Shown here piece after piece: positions 7,727-59,076 of a stretch of DNA of 64,000 nt (position 1 is its first letter; each line of letters opens with the position of its first letter). This DNA comes from Escherichia coli (lineage in GTDB: Bacteria; Pseudomonadota; Gammaproteobacteria; Enterobacterales; Enterobacteriaceae), in NCBI RefSeq assembly GCF_050920415.1, contig NZ_CP169309.1; one strand, 5' to 3'. The notes beneath the pieces were generated by a model that saw nothing but the letters and a program-made list of their open reading frames with translations, searched no databases and was not told the origin of the DNA. A program made the position numbers and the translations under genes.

Positions 7727-8818
7727 ATGGGATTCAAATGCGGTATCGTCGGTTTGCCCAACGTCGGGAAATCTACCCTGTTCAACGCGCTGACCAAAGC
7801 CGGTATTGAAGCGGCCAACTTTCCATTCTGCACCATCGAGCCGAACACAGGCGTCGTACCAATGCCTGACCCTCGCCTGGATCAACTGGCTGAAATCGTA
7901 AAACCGCAGCGTACGCTTCCCACGACCATGGAATTTGTCGATATCGCCGGTCTGGTAAAAGGCGCATCGAAAGGCGAAGGTCTGGGTAACCAGTTCCTGA
8001 CCAACATCCGTGAAACCGAAGCGATCGGTCACGTTGTTCGCTGCTTTGAAAACGACAACATCATTCACGTTTCCGGCAAAGTTAACCCGGCGGATGATAT
8101 TGAAGTTATCAACACAGAACTGGCGCTGGCAGACCTCGACACCTGCGAACGTGCGATTCATCGCGTACAGAAGAAAGCCAAAGGCGGCGATAAAGACGCG
8201 AAAGCCGAGCTGGCGGTACTGGAAAAATGCCTGCCACAGCTGGAAAACGCAGGTATGCTGCGCGCGCTGGATTTAAGCGCTGAAGAGAAAGCGGCTATTC
8301 GTTACCTGAGCTTCCTGACGCTGAAACCAACAATGTACATCGCCAACGTCAACGAAGACGGTTTTGAAAACAACCCGTATCTTGACCAGGTGCGTGAAAT
8401 CGCGGCGAAAGAAGGTTCTGTTGTGGTTCCGGTTTGTGCTGCTGTTGAAGCAGACATTGCCGAACTGGACGACGAAGAACGTGACGAGTTTATGCAGGAG
8501 CTTGGGCTGGAAGAGCCGGGCCTAAACCGCGTGATCCGTGCCGGTTATAAGCTGCTGAACCTGCAAACTTACTTCACCGCTGGGGTGAAAGAAGTGCGTG
8601 CATGGACCATTCCGGTTGGTGCAACCGCGCCGCAGGCCGCTGGCAAAATCCATACTGATTTTGAAAAAGGCTTTATCCGTGCACAAACTATTTCGTTCGA
8701 AGATTTCATCACTTACAAAGGTGAACAAGGCGCGAAAGAAGCGGGCAAAATGCGTGCAGAAGGTAAAGATTACATCGTTAAAGATGGCGATGTAATGAAC
8801 TTCCTGTTCAATGTCTAA
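7727..8818 (+). CDS. ychF: Ribosome-binding ATPase YchF (Obg-family GTPase-like)
   Basis: 363-aa ORF with P-loop GLPNVGKST and C-terminal TGS domain. Confidence 0.93.
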
Positions 8819-8876
8819 TTAATTTGTTGTCTCATGAGGTTTCGCTAAATCTCATGAAGAGCGCAAAAGTATATAA

Positions 8877-8902
8877 AATCCACGCAATTGCGTGGATTTT
8901 TT
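8877..8902 (+). terminator. Intrinsic terminator downstream of ychF
   Basis: Perfect 11-bp inverted repeat aatccacgcaa/ttgcgtggatt followed by TTTTTT. Confidence 0.7.
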
Positions 8903-9663
8903 CATTTCACCGAGTCCTAACCATTCTTATAACATCCTACACTTTTGTGCTTATTGCCTATAGTGAACCACGAGAATAATTAAAGACATAAGTGTTCAGA
9001 TGAGGGATATCTCATTAGCAATGAGATCACGTAAGTTTGTGTTCCACTGCACATCAGACACCTTTTACAGCTGATCAATATTGATCACGTTCCAATATGC
9101 TGGCGAGAAAAGGACTTGCCTGAAGAGCAATATCCAGCAGATAAAGCCCCCGAATAACGTGATTACGTGCGATCCTGGCAAGATGAAAATGATAACCAGT
9201 ATCACGATAATAACGATATGCCAGAAAATCCATTGATCAAAAATGAATATCGATGTTTTTTGCTTTTTCTTATTAGTAATGCAAAAATGGCTCATATTGT
9301 TTTTGTTATGCAGTTACATCAAGCGAAAATCCCATAACTAATTAGGATTATTACCAAAAATATTCACCAAATTATTTAACCGCTGTTTGTTGTAATGTTT
9401 TTGTCATATTCATAGTAACGAATTGGAATAAGTAACGACAACTTAGGGAATAACTCGATCTAAACTCACCTTTGTAAAGGGGATGTTAAATATATATTAA
9501 TTCCTGTGTTCCTGATTTTGCCCGGTAATAGAGAATTATTCTCAGAGCAGCTCATCATGATTGCACCATACAAATATCATGATGATAAGAGGATATTATT
9601 CATTGACTTAAACAAAATGACAAAATCCATAGACCCATAGCTTGGGTACTATATAGGAGTGGT

Positions 9664-12531
9664 ATGGGCATCAAACAACACAATGGGAATACCAAAGCCG
9701 ATCGTCTCGCTGAATTAAAAATCCGTTCGCCCTCCATTCAACTGATAAAATATGGCGCTATTGGTTTGAATGCAATTATCTTTTCCCCCCTGCTGATAGC
9801 TGCTGATTTAGGAAGTCAAAATGGCACCAATATTACTATTAATGATGGTGACAGAATTACAGGAGATACCGCCGATCCATCAGGAAACCTCTATGGTGTA
9901 ATGACCCCAGCAGGAAACACGCCTGGCAATATCAACCTGGGTGATGATGTCACCGTCAATGTCAACGACGCCTCTGGATATGCAAAGGGAATCATTATTC
10001 AGGGCAAGAACAGCTCTCTGACAGCTAACCGACTTACAGTAGATGTTGTTGGTCAAACCTCTGCCATCGGCATTAATTTAATTGGTGACTATACACATGC
10101 TGACTTAGGCACAGGCAGCACCATTAAGAGTAACGATGACGGCATCATTATTGGGCATAGCTCAACACTAACAGCCTCTCAATTCACCATTGAAAACTCG
10201 AACGGTATAGGCCTAACCATCAATGACTATGGCACCAGTGTCGATCTTGGAAGCGGTAGTAAAATCAAGACCGATGGAAGTACAGGTGTTTATATCGGTG
10301 GTCTCAACGGCAATAACGCCAACGGTGCTGCGCGTTTTACGGCGACAGACCTGACAATCGATGTTCAGGGCTACAGCGCCATGGGAATAAACGTACAGAA
10401 AAACTCTGTTGTCGATCTCGGAACAAACAGTACCATTAAAACCAATGGCGATAATGCACACGGCCTCTGGAGCTTTGGCCAGGTGAGCGCGAATGCACTC
10501 ACTGTTGATGTAACTGGAGCCGCTGCCAATGGCGTCGAAGTTCGTGGTGGTACAACCACTATCGGTGCTGATAGCCATATTTCTTCCGCGCAGGGCGGTG
10601 GCCTCGTAACCAGTGGTTCAGACGCGACAATCAATTTTTCTGGCACGGCAGCGCAACGAAACAGCATCTTTTCCAGCGGTTCTTATGGTGCCTCAGCCCA
10701 GACGGCAACGGCTGTTATCAACATGCAAAATACCGATATTACGGTTGATCGTAATGGCAGTCTGGCGCTGGGTTTGTGGGCGCTCAGCGGCGGTAGAATA
10801 ACCGGAGACAGTTTGGCTATCACCGGCGCGGCAGGAGCCAGGGGGATTTATGCCATGACCAACAGCCAGATCGATCTCACGAGCGATCTGGTCATTGATA
10901 TGAGTACACCCGACCAGATGGCCATCGCAACGCAACATGACGATGGTTATGCCGCCAGCCGCATCAACGCCTCGGGTCGTATGCTTATCAACGGTAGCGT
11001 TCTTTCTAAAGGTGGGCTAATCAATCTGGATATGCACCCTGGGTCGGTTTGGACAGGTTCTTCCCTCAGCGATAATGTCAATGGCGGAAAACTGGACGTT
11101 GCAATGAATAACAGCGTCTGGAACGTAACAAGTAATTCTAATCTCGACACGCTGGCGCTGAGCCATTCAACTGTCGATTTTGCCAGCCACGCGTCAACTG
11201 CCGGCACATTTACCACATTAAACGTAGAGAACCTTAGCGGTAACAGTACCTTTATTATGCGTGCTGATGTTGTTGGCGAGGGTAATGGCGTTAATAATAA
11301 AGGAGATTTATTGAATATCTGCGGGAGTAGTGCTGGTAATCACGTATTGGCTATCCGTAACCAGGGCAGCGAGGCCACAACGGGAAATGAAGTTCTGACA
11401 GTGGTAAAAACCACTGACGGCGCGGCCTCGTTCAGCGCGTCTTCTCAGGTTGAGTTGGGGGGATATCTGTATGATGTGCGTAAAAATGGCACTAACTGGG
11501 AGCTTTATGCTTCCGGGACAATTCCGGAGCCGACTCCTAATCCAGAGCCCACACCAGCTCCCGCTCAGCCCCCCATAGTCAACCCCGATCCTACGCCTGC
11601 CCCCGCTCCCACGCCTAAACCCACCACGACCGCAGATGCTGGCGGCAATTATCTCAATGTCGGTTACTTATTGAACTATGTTGAAAACCGTACGCTGATG
11701 CAACGGATGGGTGACCTGCGAAATCAGGGTAAAGACGGTAATATCTGGTTGCGCAGTTATGGGGGAAGCCTGGACTCCTTTGCCAGTGGCAAACTGAGCG
11801 GCTTTGACATGGGTTACAGCGGTATCCAGTTTGGTGGGGATAAACGTCTCTCTGATGAAATGCCGTTGTATGTCGGTCTGTATATTGGCTCAACACATGC
11901 ATCGCCGGACTATAGCGGAGGCGACGGTACCGCACGTTCAGACTACATGGGAATGTACGCCAGTTACATGGCACACAACGGTTTTTACAGCGATCTCGTT
12001 GTAAAAGCATCGCACCAGAAAAATAGTTTCCACGTACTGGACAGTCAGAACAACGGCGTTAACGCCAACGGCACTGCGAATGGATTGAGCATCTCCCTGG
12101 AAGCCGGGCAGAGGTTCAACCTGACCCCTACTGGTTATGGGTTCTATATAGAGCCGCAAACCCAGCTCACATACAGCCACCAGAATGGGATGGCTATGAA
12201 GGCGAGTAATGGTCTCAATATACATCTGAATCACTACGAATCGCTGCTGGGGCGTGCCAGCATGATACTGGGATATGACATCACCGCAGGCAACAGCCAG
12301 CTGAATGTCTATGTGAAGACTGGCGCTATCCGCGAGTTTTCAGGGGATACCGAATATCTGTTGAACAACTCCCGGGAGAAGTACAGTTTCAAAGGTAATG
12401 GCTGGAATAACGGCGTGGGAGTCAGTGCACAGTATAACAAACAGCACACATTCTATCTCGAAGCGGATTACACGCAGGGTAACCTCTTTGATCAGAAGCA
12501 AGTCAACGGAGGATATCGCTTCAGCTTTTAA
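9664..12531 (+). CDS. ycgV: AIDA/pertactin-type autotransporter (putative adhesin YcgV)
   Basis: 955-aa ORF: extended signal region, Gly/Thr/Asn-rich beta-helix-like repeats, Pro-rich linker (PEPTPNPEPTPAPAQPP...), C-terminal beta-barrel ending ...YRFSF. Confidence 0.85.
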   Translation: MGIKQHNGNTKADRLAELKIRSPSIQLIKYGAIGLNAIIFSPLLIAADLGSQNGTNITINDGDRITGDTADPSGNLYGVMTPAGNTPGNINLGDDVTVNVNDASGYAKGIIIQGKNSSLTANRLTVDVVGQTSAIGINLIGDYTHADLGTGSTIKSNDDGIIIGHSSTLTASQFTIENSNGIGLTINDYGTSVDLGSGSKIKTDGSTGVYIGGLNGNNANGAARFTATDLTIDVQGYSAMGINVQKNSVVDLGTNSTIKTNGDNAHGLWSFGQVSANALTVDVTGAAANGVEVRGGTTTIGADSHISSAQGGGLVTSGSDATINFSGTAAQRNSIFSSGSYGASAQTATAVINMQNTDITVDRNGSLALGLWALSGGRITGDSLAITGAAGARGIYAMTNSQIDLTSDLVIDMSTPDQMAIATQHDDGYAASRINASGRMLINGSVLSKGGLINLDMHPGSVWTGSSLSDNVNGGKLDVAMNNSVWNVTSNSNLDTLALSHSTVDFASHASTAGTFTTLNVENLSGNSTFIMRADVVGEGNGVNNKGDLLNICGSSAGNHVLAIRNQGSEATTGNEVLTVVKTTDGAASFSASSQVELGGYLYDVRKNGTNWELYASGTIPEPTPNPEPTPAPAQPPIVNPDPTPAPAPTPKPTTTADAGGNYLNVGYLLNYVENRTLMQRMGDLRNQGKDGNIWLRSYGGSLDSFASGKLSGFDMGYSGIQFGGDKRLSDEMPLYVGLYIGSTHASPDYSGGDGTARSDYMGMYASYMAHNGFYSDLVVKASHQKNSFHVLDSQNNGVNANGTANGLSISLEAGQRFNLTPTGYGFYIEPQTQLTYSHQNGMAMKASNGLNIHLNHYESLLGRASMILGYDITAGNSQLNVYVKTGAIREFSGDTEYLLNNSREKYSFKGNGWNNGVGVSAQYNKQHTFYLEADYTQGNLFDQKQVNGGYRFSF

Positions 12532-12630
12532 GTGCGGGATAGACAAGCCCTTAAACGATGCTGAAAATTTTTAGCGTGCGCCGGAATGAAATACAGATCA
12601 CTCTGATGTATCAGAAATCGTCTCTGTCTT

Positions 12631-14550
12631 TCATACCCGGCGCTTAAACTGCCCTGCATCAATGCCATGTTGCTTCATTTTCCGCCACAGCGTAGTGCGG
12701 CCGATTCCAAGTAAAGCCGACATTTCCTGAATGCGACCGCCTGTGACCTGGGCTGCGTTAATAATTGCCTCTTTTTCAACTTCCGCAAATGACAGACTGG
12801 TGGAAAGGCGAGTGGCGCTGACATCATCTGTCGCCTGCTCGGTAAACAGATGTTCAGGTAAATCACTGACGCGAATGCGCCCGTTATCACTACTCAGAGC
12901 AAGATTCTCGATGACGCTGTAAAGTTCAAAATCGTTGCCTGGCCATGCACAAGAAACCAGGCGAGCGAGGGCATCGTCATCAATTTTCAGACGCGTAGAG
13001 AAGCGTTTTTCAAGACTGCGTAATTTGTTATTCACCAGCGCCGGAATGCTGCCACGCCGCATACGCAGAGGCGGGATGGTAATTTCAAATGCATGCAGCG
13101 CGTAATACAGCTGGCGACTAAAGCGATTTTGTTCCACCAGCATTGCCAGGTCCGCGGTCGTTGTGGCAATCACTTTGACATCAATTGGTATTAAACGCCG
13201 CGCATCCAGTCGCGTGATAACACCCTGCTTGATAACCTGAAGCAAAGCAGACTGTAACTCCACCGCCAGATATTCAATCTTTTCAAGAAACAGCGTGCCG
13301 CCGTGCGCCAGTTCCAGTCGACTCAGACGACCATTTTCATTGTCCGTGCGATCGCCGCCAATAAATTCTTCCGCCAGCGCCGCATCACCATATAACTCAC
13401 AATTGACGGCGATATAAGGCCCCGCTGCACGCTCACTTTCATTATGAATTGCCTGACTTAGCAGTGCCTTGCCCACGCCCTCTTCTCCACAAAGCAGGAC
13501 AGGAAAGCTACTGCGCGCCGCCTGGCGACCAAAATGAATCAAGCGGCGGGTTTGCGGATCGTCCTGTGGCATATGAGCGAAAGTATGGCTGACTTTTCCT
13601 AATTGACTGGTCATTAACTGCCGCATCTGTTCCACAGGATGGAGCAACAAAATAAAGCTGGTTCCCTGCGTTTCTATTATCGGTTTAAGGGTTATCACCG
13701 CATCAATAAACTGGTGCTGACTTTCAAAGGTTGCTTCTACGTGTTTGAGCGGATGTGCCTGTTTTATTGCTTGTTGCAATACGGCGGGTAACGTTAAGAG
13801 TTCAGTGATCGCCCTTCCCTGACTTGCCGTCGCGTCAAGGCGCAAGGCCCGCGCCGCCTGGGCATTGATAAATTGCAAATTACCCTGCTCGTCCCAGCTA
13901 ATCACGCCATCATCCATACTTTCTAACAGGGCATTAAGTTGATTTAAATGACGGTTAGTTTCAGCGAGCAAACTGTCCGTCAGCAGTAAATTTCCGACCT
14001 CGCGTGCGATTGCCAACGTCAACGGCAAATCAGCTGCGGTAGTTTGCTCAACCGGACACGCCAGCGCTATTGTTCCCGTCAATCGGCCCTTGCTGTCAAA
14101 CAACGGTGTTGCACAAAAGGCCCAGTTCCAGAGTGCCTGTTTGAAATGTTGATCGGCCATCGTTTTCACGGCCTGACCAGAGATAGCCGCTAACGATAGC
14201 GCACAGGTACCAATAATTCCCTCTGCGCAATACGTGCCGTCATTGAATCCCAGGACACTAAGCTGGTGCAGCGTTTGTGGATCACCAAAACGACTAAGGA
14301 TGCAGGCGGTTTCATCAAGGATGAACAGTCCGCACGCCCGCGATTCCATATATTCCCAGGCATCTTCCAGCGCAGCCTGCCCGAGCGTCAGCATCGCTTT
14401 CTTACGCCGATAGATAGTAGCAAATGTCACGCCCTGGGCCTGGTGCGGTACGCTCCATGTCTCCCGTTTCATCAGTTTATTGCATCGCTCCCAGGAGGCT
14501 GCAATTAAGGGAGATATGCCCCGTTCATCGTTGTTAAAAGCGCCACTCAT
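12631..14550 (-). CDS. dhaR: Sigma-54-type transcriptional activator of the dha operon, DhaR
   Basis: ORF 12631..14631; start trimmed to the ATG at 14550 (MSGAFNNDERGISPL...), giving 639 aa; AAA+ motif (GEEGVGK) and C-terminal HTH. Confidence 0.88.
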   Translation of the reverse strand: MSGAFNNDERGISPLIAASWERCNKLMKRETWSVPHQAQGVTFATIYRRKKAMLTLGQAALEDAWEYMESRACGLFILDETACILSRFGDPQTLHQLSVLGFNDGTYCAEGIIGTCALSLAAISGQAVKTMADQHFKQALWNWAFCATPLFDSKGRLTGTIALACPVEQTTAADLPLTLAIAREVGNLLLTDSLLAETNRHLNQLNALLESMDDGVISWDEQGNLQFINAQAARALRLDATASQGRAITELLTLPAVLQQAIKQAHPLKHVEATFESQHQFIDAVITLKPIIETQGTSFILLLHPVEQMRQLMTSQLGKVSHTFAHMPQDDPQTRRLIHFGRQAARSSFPVLLCGEEGVGKALLSQAIHNESERAAGPYIAVNCELYGDAALAEEFIGGDRTDNENGRLSRLELAHGGTLFLEKIEYLAVELQSALLQVIKQGVITRLDARRLIPIDVKVIATTTADLAMLVEQNRFSRQLYYALHAFEITIPPLRMRRGSIPALVNNKLRSLEKRFSTRLKIDDDALARLVSCAWPGNDFELYSVIENLALSSDNGRIRVSDLPEHLFTEQATDDVSATRLSTSLSFAEVEKEAIINAAQVTGGRIQEMSALLGIGRTTLWRKMKQHGIDAGQFKRRV

Positions 14551-56241: not shown

Positions 56242-57765
56242 TTACTCAATCATAACCTTCACCTTCGGTTTAGAAAGGATAATTTTAACCAGGTCGATGT
56301 AGGTTACCGGTTTATAGAAATAATAACCCTGCTGAAATGTGATGTTGTTTTGATTCAGATAATCAAGCTGTTCTTTTGTTTCGACACCTTCAGCGACGAT
56401 ACTGATCGAAAGTTTACGCGCCAGATCCAGTACACAATCCAGAATCCTGGTTGATTCTGGGTCTGCATTGACACGACCAACAAAACTGTGATCAATTTTA
56501 ATATAATCAATATGCAGATCATGCAGATAAGAAAGCCCTGAATAGCCAGTACCAAAATCATCCAGTGCGATGACAAAACCATTTTCATGCAGAATGTTCA
56601 ACCGCTGAACCAGACTTTCATCAACATCTAATGATTCACGCTCGGTCACTTCCAGAACGAGGTTTAAATCGCGGCGGGTAAAACTGTCACGGAAAATTAA
56701 GCACTCGTCGACAAACGTCGGCGAAATAATATGCGAGGCACTAAAATTAATTCCGATATGAAAACCTTCCGGCAATTTACTCGCGATAGTGTTCATCTGT
56801 GTGACAACCTGATTCATCAGACTTTGTGTAAGCGGAACAATTAATCCAGATTTTTCAGCAAGTGGAATAAATGCCGCGGGTGAGATATATTTGCCGTGAG
56901 GTTGTTTCCAGCGGGCTAATACCTCAACTCCCCGCAATGACCCTTCCCGACCATTTACCACAGGTTGGTAAAAAGGGACAATCTCACCATTACTTATGGC
57001 CCGTCGCAGGACCTCTTCAGGCGTTGCGCTTTTATTAAAATACTTATCAAGCAGGTAGGCTGCGGCGCAGGCAATTAACAGAATGAATATCAAAACCCCT
57101 ACGCCATTATCGATAAGTCTGTAGAAGCTAAAGAATGGTGGTGGGTTAAAGATAATAGTGAAATGATATCTTGTGGAGTGAACCTTCTCAGTATAAGGAT
57201 AGTGTCCATTAAGCGTCATCACGTCACCGGTAGGTCCAATAATGTCATCCGCTACGCGTAATGCATACCTTACCCCTTTCAAGGGCACATTAAGCGCTCC
57301 ACGAATATGCTGATCACTTATCGTGACCAAAATACGCGTGTCTGCAAATTGGCTCTGATAGAGCAGGATAGGCAATCTATTGACGGTGTCGATTGCCGGA
57401 GCCAACAGTAAATTACTGTCAGGGAAAGCAGGAATACGAGACAGCAGGACTCGATTCCCCGGCAAGGATGTACACCAGACCATTCCGCGTTTGAGAATGA
57501 TGATTGTGCGCAAGTGAGGTTTCAGAGCTGCTTCAGTGCCAAGCTGATATTGCTCCTCGAGGTCGCATTCCTTCCCGGCAATGTTAACCGCCGCTTGAGT
57601 CGCCTGTGACGCTTCTTCAAGTATGTGATTGATATTGTTGACAGCATATCTCGCTCCCGCCGTATATGCTGCTTTTGCGGAATACCAAAGCTGGATATTC
57701 AAAATAGCGACACCGGTTATAAACAAGCATATCGCAACGAGGATGGGTATGAGTGTATTGCGCAT
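56242..57765 (-). CDS. pdeG: c-di-GMP phosphodiesterase PdeG (YcgG; CSS-motif sensor domain plus EAL domain)
   Basis: 507-aa ORF with N-terminal TM and periplasmic domain, C-terminal EAL domain (EVLARW..., DDFGTGYS). Confidence 0.88.
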   Translation of the reverse strand: MRNTLIPILVAICLFITGVAILNIQLWYSAKAAYTAGARYAVNNINHILEEASQATQAAVNIAGKECDLEEQYQLGTEAALKPHLRTIIILKRGMVWCTSLPGNRVLLSRIPAFPDSNLLLAPAIDTVNRLPILLYQSQFADTRILVTISDQHIRGALNVPLKGVRYALRVADDIIGPTGDVMTLNGHYPYTEKVHSTRYHFTIIFNPPPFFSFYRLIDNGVGVLIFILLIACAAAYLLDKYFNKSATPEEVLRRAISNGEIVPFYQPVVNGREGSLRGVEVLARWKQPHGKYISPAAFIPLAEKSGLIVPLTQSLMNQVVTQMNTIASKLPEGFHIGINFSASHIISPTFVDECLIFRDSFTRRDLNLVLEVTERESLDVDESLVQRLNILHENGFVIALDDFGTGYSGLSYLHDLHIDYIKIDHSFVGRVNADPESTRILDCVLDLARKLSISIVAEGVETKEQLDYLNQNNITFQQGYYFYKPVTYIDLVKIILSKPKVKVMIE

Positions 57766-58097
57766 TCGCTTGTCCCGGACTAAGGATTTTAATACATAAA
57801 ATGATGTTCATTCGCTCGTGCTGGCGTCTAAAGAGAGCATGGTAGAGAGCATAAGAAATATCCACGCCGAAGATAAAATTTTCTCCATCGTCATCTAACC
57901 TATTAATTATTGTGCTTAATGTGGGTAAAATTAAGCAAATCTGGCAGGATGTCAGACGTCAAGAATGGAGAACAATAGTTCTCCATTCTTGTTTAAACCC
58001 TGATATTCCGGATATATTAAGAAACATAACGACTTAAATTATTACTTTGCAACAGAATATGATACAGCTGATGGTAATTTTAAAACCTTACTCAGTT

Positions 58098-58346
58098 CTA
58101 AGAGAGCTCGGCTTCCCTGTCATTAATAATGACATCCGTTAGTGTTGTCTTATGCAATTCAATGTACTGCAAAATTTGCAGGTAGAGATCAGAAAGAATC
58201 ACACTCGTTTCATCTTTTAAACGCAAGCGTAAAGCCTGATCAATAATATGACTATTAACATACCCATGCGCCATGAACACCTCCCTCTCGAGATTTTTAA
58301 ATAAAGCACATTGAAAAATAAATCTCTCGGGAATTGAATTATTCAT
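58098..58346 (-). CDS. ymgC: Small protein YmgC
   Basis: 82-aa ORF, last gene of the ycgZ-ymgA-ariR-ymgC cluster. Confidence 0.85.
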   Translation of the reverse strand: MNNSIPERFIFQCALFKNLEREVFMAHGYVNSHIIDQALRLRLKDETSVILSDLYLQILQYIELHKTTLTDVIINDREAELS

Positions 58347-58466
58347 GTCAGCCTCGTAAAAATATCAATCCAATAGAATTATGCTGTGTATAGTCTAAGC
58401 GACAGACAAAAATAAGATGAATGAGTTTTCTATAAACTTATGCTAGTTATACTAAACAATAAAAAG

Positions 58467-58733
58467 TCACATATCATCAGCTGTGTATCGCAACACGATT
58501 TCCAGTGTTTTTCTAATCACATCAGCTTTGAGAATATCATTCGTTGTTTCCAGGGAGTGTATCAGACTTAAGATAATATTTTTATTATTAACATTATCTC
58601 CTGAAAGCATTAAATTGGTCACCGCCTGCCCTAATACAGCAGACTCTTCTTCTAACAAATTCCCCGAACTGCGAAAGTAACTTGATAACGCCTTATCAGT
58701 TATTGCGTTATGAATAGTAGTATCTTCAAGCAT
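58467..58733 (-). CDS. ariR: Acid-resistance/biofilm regulator AriR (YmgB)
   Basis: 88-aa ORF ([41 protein letters not shown]...). Confidence 0.9.
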
Positions 58734-58761
58734 GGTAACCTCTCATCTTACTTATGAAATT

Positions 58762-59034
58762 TTAATGTATTCTGTTTATTTTCTTACCATTGAATATACT
58801 TTTATTGTCAGCTATTGCTGCTCTTCTGTTAGGCCCTCCTGTATCACAGTTGCTAAAATCACGAATTATGCTATCAATTAAATCTCGTCGGAAGGCATTT
58901 TGTTCAACAGATTTCATTACGAGTAATTGCTTAATAAGAGTCTGCAACGAAAAATTTATCTTCATGCGTAATATCTGGAGCACCGCCTGGCCAGTAATTT
59001 CATGTTTTATACTTTCATTATCAGATGTCTTCAT
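58762..59034 (-). CDS. ymgA: Rcs-connector small protein YmgA
   Basis: 90-aa ORF matching YmgA as remembered. Confidence 0.88.
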   Translation of the reverse strand: MKTSDNESIKHEITGQAVLQILRMKINFSLQTLIKQLLVMKSVEQNAFRRDLIDSIIRDFSNCDTGGPNRRAAIADNKSIFNGKKINRIH

Positions 59035-59076
59035 AACGACTTCATAGTTAATCTGTCAAATAATCAGGCTGTCACA

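Follow-up and report, generated by a model that had tools for sequence, protein, structure and literature searches.

The 845-bp spacer between ychF and ycgV, analyzed here in a 64,000-nucleotide stretch of Escherichia coli DNA (contig NZ_CP169309.1; "the window"), is silenced DNA of an accessory segment with a regulatory role ahead of ycgV, a cryptic adhesin gene; this status was largely known already. A small hydrophobic ORF on the minus strand of this spacer is probably, with a likelihood that we put at roughly 60%, the remnant of an orphan 84-codon gene for a small membrane protein that is no longer maintained by selection. We infer both the former coding and the present non-function of this ORF. 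The anatomy of the spacer, the allele census, the neutral substitution pattern, the lack of homologues and the local periodicity were computed in this study; H-NS and YbdO binding were taken from the literature and pertain to K-12 and APEC only.

Anatomy of the ychF-ycgV spacer

The local gene order is pth, ychF, spacer, ycgV and dhaR. The gap spans positions 8819..9663, between the end of ychF at 8818 and the start of ycgV at 9664. Its GC content is 0.349, whereas the window as a whole has 0.483, ychF 0.514 and ycgV 0.497. Its sub-segments range from 0.31 to 0.39, and the spacer ranks in the lowest 1.8% of the 845-bp windows of this stretch, bearing out the original prediction of a long and strongly AT-rich intergenic region. 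Two other parts of the window, at approximately 57,700-59,700 and 62,400-64,000, are as AT-rich as the spacer or more so (845-bp GC down to 0.335 and 0.311, respectively). The spacer is 77 nt longer than that of K-12, mostly through a 75-bp segment deleted in K-12, and no feature is placed in 8819..9663 by the RefSeq/PGAP records or the curated MG1655 record. Read from left to right, it starts with the terminator of ychF, enters a 3.7-kb accessory segment at the left end of the latter, continues with a promoter island that is AT-rich and H-NS-bound in K-12, and finishes with a conserved ycgV-proximal promoter segment that includes the YbdO site (Table 1). Taken as a whole, it probably serves as the silenced upstream regulatory region of ycgV, an accessory and often cryptic autotransporter gene.

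Table 1. Features of the ychF-ycgV region and their positions in the window
Feature	Position	Strand	Basis or description
ychF terminator hairpin, bidirectional, intrinsic	8875..8900		11-bp stem, 4-nt loop, U-run on the + strand; terminator scan of both strands
ycgV islet, accessory (variable part of the spacer plus ycgV), 3.7 kb	8909..12637		Strain Ecol_743 is homologous up to 8908 and again from 12638
76-aa ORF, Met9 to the stop of the ancestral frame	9065..9295	-	ORF list; 100% match to protein P0001
Full 84-codon frame, MYLHNKNNM...	9065..9319	-	Longest E. coli allele; 84-aa alleles; periodicity and GC3 excess along the entire length
Segment missing from K-12-type alleles, 75 bp	9100..9174		In-frame deletion between 5-bp CTGGC direct repeats at 9100-9104 and 9175-9179
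Codon 68	9116..9118	-	CAA in the present strain, TAA in the commonest undeleted haplotype (67-aa product); allele comparison
Orthologue of K-12 promoter island 1255333_301 (ycgV/ychF)	9206..9506		PMC3661553 Table 1, mapped via K-12 alignment and MG1655 coordinates
Invariant block, 54 nt	9238..9291		No variation among 17 E. coli alleles at any codon position; ranks second in length among the invariant runs (permutation p ~0.01)
Codon 2 nonsense, TAT>TAA	9314..9316	-	Private to the present lineage
Conserved ycgV-proximal promoter and 5'UTR region, 126 bp	9538..9663	+	SNP density 0.048
ycgV, AIDA-type autotransporter adhesin gene, regulated by the spacer	9664..12531	+	ORF list; pN/pS 0.25

The best-conserved stretch of the spacer is 8819-8908, which contains the ychF 3' end and terminator and has an SNP density of 0.033. 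As RNA, the terminator hairpin folds with -15.9 kcal/mol (z = -4.5). An Rfam search at a relaxed threshold returned leader-like matches that were all sub-threshold and correspond to this hairpin itself, and it identified no small RNA or riboswitch above threshold in or near the spacer ORF. At the opposite end, the conserved ycgV-proximal region contains two invariant runs (9549-9606 and 9608-9640), and the ycgV Shine-Dalgarno sequence, AGGAG, is located at 9655-9659.

The central part of the spacer corresponds to a known promoter island of K-12. The K-12 alignment is gapless over columns 357-845, equal to window positions 9175-9663, and the mapping of the island includes an inferred offset of approximately 777 nt between U00096.2 and U00096.3. 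The island orthologue covers the 5' third of the ORF together with the stretch upstream of it. In K-12, the island is one of 78 promoter islands, is tied to a predicted foreign gene, and is H-NS-bound in all ChIP studies compared (class "A") (PMC3661553). On these K-12 data, the expectation that the spacer is likely H-NS-bound is supported. In addition, genomic SELEX revealed a binding peak of minor-sigma RNA polymerase in the ychF-ycgV spacer (PMC5493296). In an avian pathogenic strain, ycgV is under the control of the repressor YbdO, which binds a 126-bp probe in EMSA (PMC11681634); when the primers of that study are mapped, the probe equals window positions 9538-9663.

The high-affinity H-NS motif tCGATAAATT has a single two-mismatch site in the spacer (8842-8851), and its window-wide count of 87 against 78 expected indicates no enrichment. 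A simple sigma-70 consensus scan of the spacer found 2 sites, compared to 4.6 +/- 1.8 in shuffled sequences, the published islands having been defined by PlatProm. Because neither the motif scan nor the sigma-70 scan gave support, the H-NS label rests on AT content, orthology and published ChIP.

By alignment, the spacer is the same locus as one of the K-12 promoter islands of Shavkunov, Ozoline and co-workers, and it is likewise AT-rich and situated beside a gene flagged as foreign. It differs from these islands in that the spacer of the present strain is longer and shows no excess of promoter-like sites in a simple scan, with H-NS occupancy known from K-12. The arrangement also resembles the H-NS-silenced upstream regions of cryptic adhesin genes (e.g., the yfaL/ypaB, ecp, fim and yad loci in the table of PMC3661553): a long AT-rich spacer precedes an adhesin gene with low expression under laboratory conditions, and this gene has a dedicated repressor, YbdO, which binds the proximal 126 bp. 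For ycgV, the binding data suggest that silencing acts via the spacer.

The region is also variable in its presence. Window homology to strain Ecol_743 ends exactly past the ychF terminator, at 8908. In that strain (L011 and L026; NZ_CP015069.1, 46.6-73.1 kb), an island of approximately 26 kb takes the place of the ycgV segment, with a cargo of two tyrosine recombinases, IS elements, a retron Ec67-family reverse transcriptase and an ABC-three-component system. In strain HH45, erosion has left only scattered pieces of the spacer and of ycgV. Judged from these sequence comparisons, the ychF-dhaR interval appears to be an integration hot spot. Damage to the ycgV gene itself includes a truncation in two O157:H7-type strains, a frameshift in UTAK-6 and an internal stop in strain 19-7; the loci with ycgV damage are L006, L010, L012, L016 and L017.

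The minus-strand reading frame and its alleles

The original prediction described a 76-aa minus-strand ORF with two hydrophobic helices. The quoted peptide is indeed present, and it contains two transmembrane (TM)-like 19-residue windows on the Kyte-Doolittle scale, with a top mean hydropathy of 3.01. The ORF lies within an 84-codon frame with its ATG at 9319-9317; the present strain has a TAA at codon 2, so the ORF restarts at Met9. Its orientation is divergent from ycgV, and it is located at the left end of the 3.7-kb accessory segment. Upstream of Met9, a Shine-Dalgarno sequence is absent, and upstream of the ancestral ATG there is GGGA alone, 10 nt away. The translation start signal of the ORF is weak or absent.

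To survey the frame across the species, 54- to 55-nt allele-specific queries were run against 5,426 complete E. coli genomes. Approximately 4,077 of these carry most of the spacer, and approximately 780 are without any match to the region. The codon-2 TAA allele, which gives rise to the 76-aa ORF, occurs in just 2 of the 5,426 genomes. The undeleted version, with all haplotypes pooled, is present in approximately 2,108 genomes; 1,786 (~44% of carriers) have the exact TAA-68 haplotype that encodes 67 aa, as in O157:H7. The CAA-68 haplotype, which is 84-aa-capable, yields 261 exact matches and at most ~277 genomes, meaning that the 84-codon haplotype is retained in at most ~7% of the genomes with the region.

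The K-12-type allele, in which 75 bp are deleted, accounts for a further ~1,950-1,990 genomes (~48% of carriers), K-12 among them. Its product is 59 aa long from the ATG and 60 aa from a TTG codon directly upstream. Flanked by CTGGC repeats, the deletion is as expected for replication slippage. It also takes away the site of the common codon-68 stop. Other recorded variants include frameshifted C-termini and IS junctions. As a result of these many stop, deletion and frameshift alleles, ~94% of the strains with the region have a frame that is broken or reduced in length. The ORF had been put forward as a possible functional small membrane protein, with disruption in close relatives named as a refuting observation, and the degree of disruption seen here argues against that suggestion.

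One part of the frame is shared more widely. The N-terminal ~47 codons, which specify a basic stretch and the first hydrophobic helix, are common to the three major alleles (84, 67 and 59 aa) and are open in 17 of 17 sampled alleles. Two alleles (L005 and L015) combine the window-type N-terminal haplotype (codons 1-57) with a K-12/O157-type C-terminal part (codons 58-84; D58, G62 and a stop at 68), which indicates recombination within the ORF region.

Substitution pattern, coding signature and competing explanations

Selection on the frame was assessed in 17 alleles, consisting of this window and 16 loci. These contain 23 nonsynonymous or nonsense changes and 6 synonymous changes, compared to a neutral expectation of 23.2 and 5.8. 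The changes are distributed over the three codon positions as 14:9:7, with the third position varying least. The mean pN/pS of the ORF is 0.8-1.3 depending on the codon range; the corresponding values in these genomes are 0.01 (ychF) and 0.25 (ycgV). An omega of 0.25 or less is rejected for the ORF (p = 0.001), while an omega of 0.5 is compatible with the data (p = 0.10), with 29 changes only. Moreover, SNPs are as dense in the ORF (0.110) as in the non-coding DNA next to it (9320-9537; 0.115). The surviving ORF sequence drifts at the neutral rate, with no upkeep by selection. Two alternative frames with a low pN/pS (~0.2-0.3), namely minus frame +1 and one plus frame, were rejected as small-sample noise because they contain 1-4 stops.

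The invariant block at 9238-9291 stands out within this neutral background. Since its 17 codons are invariant at synonymous sites too, the constraint is placed on the DNA: the pattern points to selection on the nucleotide sequence and not on the protein. The block could act at the DNA level, in the regulation of ycgV or in the nucleation of H-NS.

These data also bear on the idea that the ORF is a real, strain-variable small inner-membrane protein. According to this explanation, the core would be the N-terminal ~47 residues (KKKQK plus one TM helix), transcribed divergently once H-NS silencing is lifted, with a free tail that gives products of 84, 67 or 59 aa. Consistent with such a protein, none of the sampled alleles closes the N-terminal part, the K-12 deletion preserves the frame, prediction gives one to two TM segments, the periodicity described below is coding-like, and the bidirectional terminator downstream could end the transcript; the ORF is also annotated in some GenBank records. 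However, codons 1-47 have a pN/pS of 1.3, with H, L, P and S all found at one helix position and just 2 synonymous changes, and the 17 invariant codons are equally invariant at their synonymous sites. In addition, the present strain carries the codon-2 stop, the translation start signal is weak or absent, and the ORF is absent from the searchable lists of translated ORFs for K-12, EDL933 and Sakai, a weak argument given that the locus is silenced in the laboratory. We therefore regard a maintained protein as quite unlikely.

The composition of the ORF was compared with that of shuffled DNA to establish how gene-like it is. Dinucleotide shuffling of the spacer yields an ORF of 76 aa or more in 20% of cases with any start and in 13% with an ATG start, so the ORF length is within chance (p 0.13-0.20). 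Against the longest ORFs of the shuffles, in contrast, its three-base periodicity (p ~0.004), GC3 excess (p ~0.003), peak hydrophobicity (p ~0.001) and two TM-like segments (p ~0.01) are unusual. The p-values for periodicity are post hoc, as the ORF was picked for its hydrophobicity, and periodicity and hydrophobicity count as one signal, caused by T at codon position 2. The base-by-codon-position chi-square of the ORF is 22-25, and its GC1/2/3 values are 0.32/0.24/0.54. In a sliding scan, strong periodicity in ychF gives way to low values in the spacer flanks (chi-square 2-10), with a return to ychF-like values over the ORF (20-26) and a further rise in ycgV. The GC3 excess is found in all three parts of the frame (codons 1-28, 29-48 and 49-84), and thus extends past the common stop. 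Tandem repeats were considered as a source of the periodicity, and none occur in the ORF. The E. coli codon-usage log-likelihood of the ORF is ~0, under the 5th percentile of chunks of real genes, and is uninformative.

A pure chance ORF would never have coded; it would be an accidental stop-free run in AT-rich DNA that owes its hydrophobic appearance to T-rich codons. The length distribution of the shuffles agrees with this, as do the pN/pS of ~1, the low variability of the third codon position, the codon-usage score of ~0, the missing Shine-Dalgarno sequence and the lack of homologues. Yet the coding-like periodicity is limited to the ORF and the signal recurs in all three sub-segments, while shuffle ORFs equal the periodicity or GC3 in just 0.3-0.4% of cases and the peak hydrophobicity in 0.1%. 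Because the ORF has coding-like periodicity and its flanks do not, the data are in better agreement with a decayed former gene than with a random ORF, and we consider a chance origin unlikely. The original prediction had offered a chance ORF in AT-rich regulatory DNA as its second option; this option is largely borne out, though the word chance is probably not fully accurate, given the confinement of the periodicity to the ORF.

Composition alone suggests that the frame formerly coded and that 84 codons are likely the older state. Read as a relic, the ORF would have no parent gene to point to, as no intact homologue is known elsewhere. Under the decayed-gene reading, an orphan gene for a small membrane protein of 84 codons would once have been encoded divergently from ycgV. 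Separate E. coli lineages would then have disabled or shortened the frame, by the codon-68 stop, the 75-bp slippage deletion, frameshifts and, in the present strain, the codon-2 stop. What remains of the ORF sequence would drift neutrally.

Relatives, annotation records and significance

Homologues of the ORF were sought in several collections. Among 5.8 billion proteins searched, 74 relatives were found, and every one that has an organism name belongs to Escherichia or Shigella. The commonest full-length relative is 84 aa long and starts with MYLHNKNNM. When 1.84 billion cluster representatives were searched with a profile, nothing emerged beyond variants, chimeras and IS junctions of the same locus. 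A scan of one representative genome per bacterial species with two exact peptide patterns, which diverged copies could escape, matched only two contigs, JAEWQO010000123.1 (an "Actinomycetes bacterium" MAG) and a 400-nt node of Streptomyces sp. DH24 with a coverage of 0.84. In both, the match covers 177 nt with an identity of 56-57%, the values of the deletion-type 59-aa allele, and these copies most likely reflect E. coli contamination of the assemblies. A tblastn search of a phage collection gave zero matches to the ORF. Plasmid matches were all to E. coli records of 0.09-4.9 Mb typed as non-mobilizable, and were set aside as probably mislabelled chromosome. When the 76-, 84-, 67- and 59-aa forms were compared to Pfam, NCBIfam, PHROGs and PDB sequences, only compositional TM noise was obtained (E >=0.01), and none of the databases searched contains an intact conserved parent or orthologue of the ORF.

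The possibility that the ORF travels with ycgV-like genes was also considered and rejected: homologues of 50-55% identity in Escherichia alba, Cedecea sp. and one Logan assembly contig are situated at other loci, with no similar ORF upstream. Another YcgV homologue is recorded in Morganella sp. The proposal of a real gene had raised the question of whether the reading frame is conserved across Enterobacteriaceae; homologues outside Escherichia/Shigella were not found in these searches, which speaks against it.

A small hydrophobic intergenic peptide could also be the toxic component of a module resembling type I toxin-antitoxin systems, with an antisense or divergent small RNA to restrain it, and this general look, which the ORF shares with Hok, Ldr, Ibs, TisB, ShoB and Zor, is all that recommends the comparison. 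The known type I toxins of E. coli are shorter than 84 aa. The ORF also differs from them in being single-copy (a median of 1 place per genome) and mostly truncated. Neither the ORF nor its surroundings have an above-threshold Rfam match, the Pfam and NCBIfam searches gave no toxin, and nonsense and deletion alleles dominate with no sign of a conserved partner RNA. A module of this kind is highly improbable.

The ORF is not entirely new to the databases. It was described in the original prediction as unannotated, which is accurate for RefSeq and MG1655; some GenBank records do name it as a hypothetical or membrane protein, e.g., EDL933_1906, which is the 67-aa allele of the spacer ORF. EDL933_1906 is classed by PredictProtein as a single-TM protein of the inner membrane (Neuhaus et al. 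2016, PMC4765031). In the same study, it served as a randomly drawn annotated control and is outside the 72 ORFs with ribosome footprints (PMC4765031). The searchable supplements of Stringer 2021, Hücker 2017 and Fesenko 2024 have no entry for the locus, and the ORF is absent from the published lists of translated novel ORFs of K-12, EDL933 and Sakai, as far as these are searchable. Because the locus is silenced in the laboratory, this absence is a weak negative. Like the taxonomically restricted orphan small genes of Neuhaus et al. (2016), the spacer ORF is short and restricted to E. coli/Shigella. It differs from them in being outside the footprinted set, in evolving neutrally and in its widespread truncation.

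The significance of these results is small outside annotation hygiene. They explain why annotation pipelines disagree on this ORF, which some GenBank records list while RefSeq and MG1655 omit it, and they illustrate the limits of single-genome signals, as a small ORF that is hydrophobic, periodic and gene-like proves dispensable in population data. A more ambitious view, to which we give low odds, is that the ORF is an H-NS-silenced inner-membrane protein of the ycgV islet, with a conserved, single-pass core at the N terminus and a tail of lineage-specific length, or an orphan gene caught in parallel loss via different lesions. As the probable remnant of an orphan gene, the locus offers a modest test case for orphan-gene birth and death, and it bears on the evolution of the H-NS-silenced spacers that precede cryptic adhesin genes.
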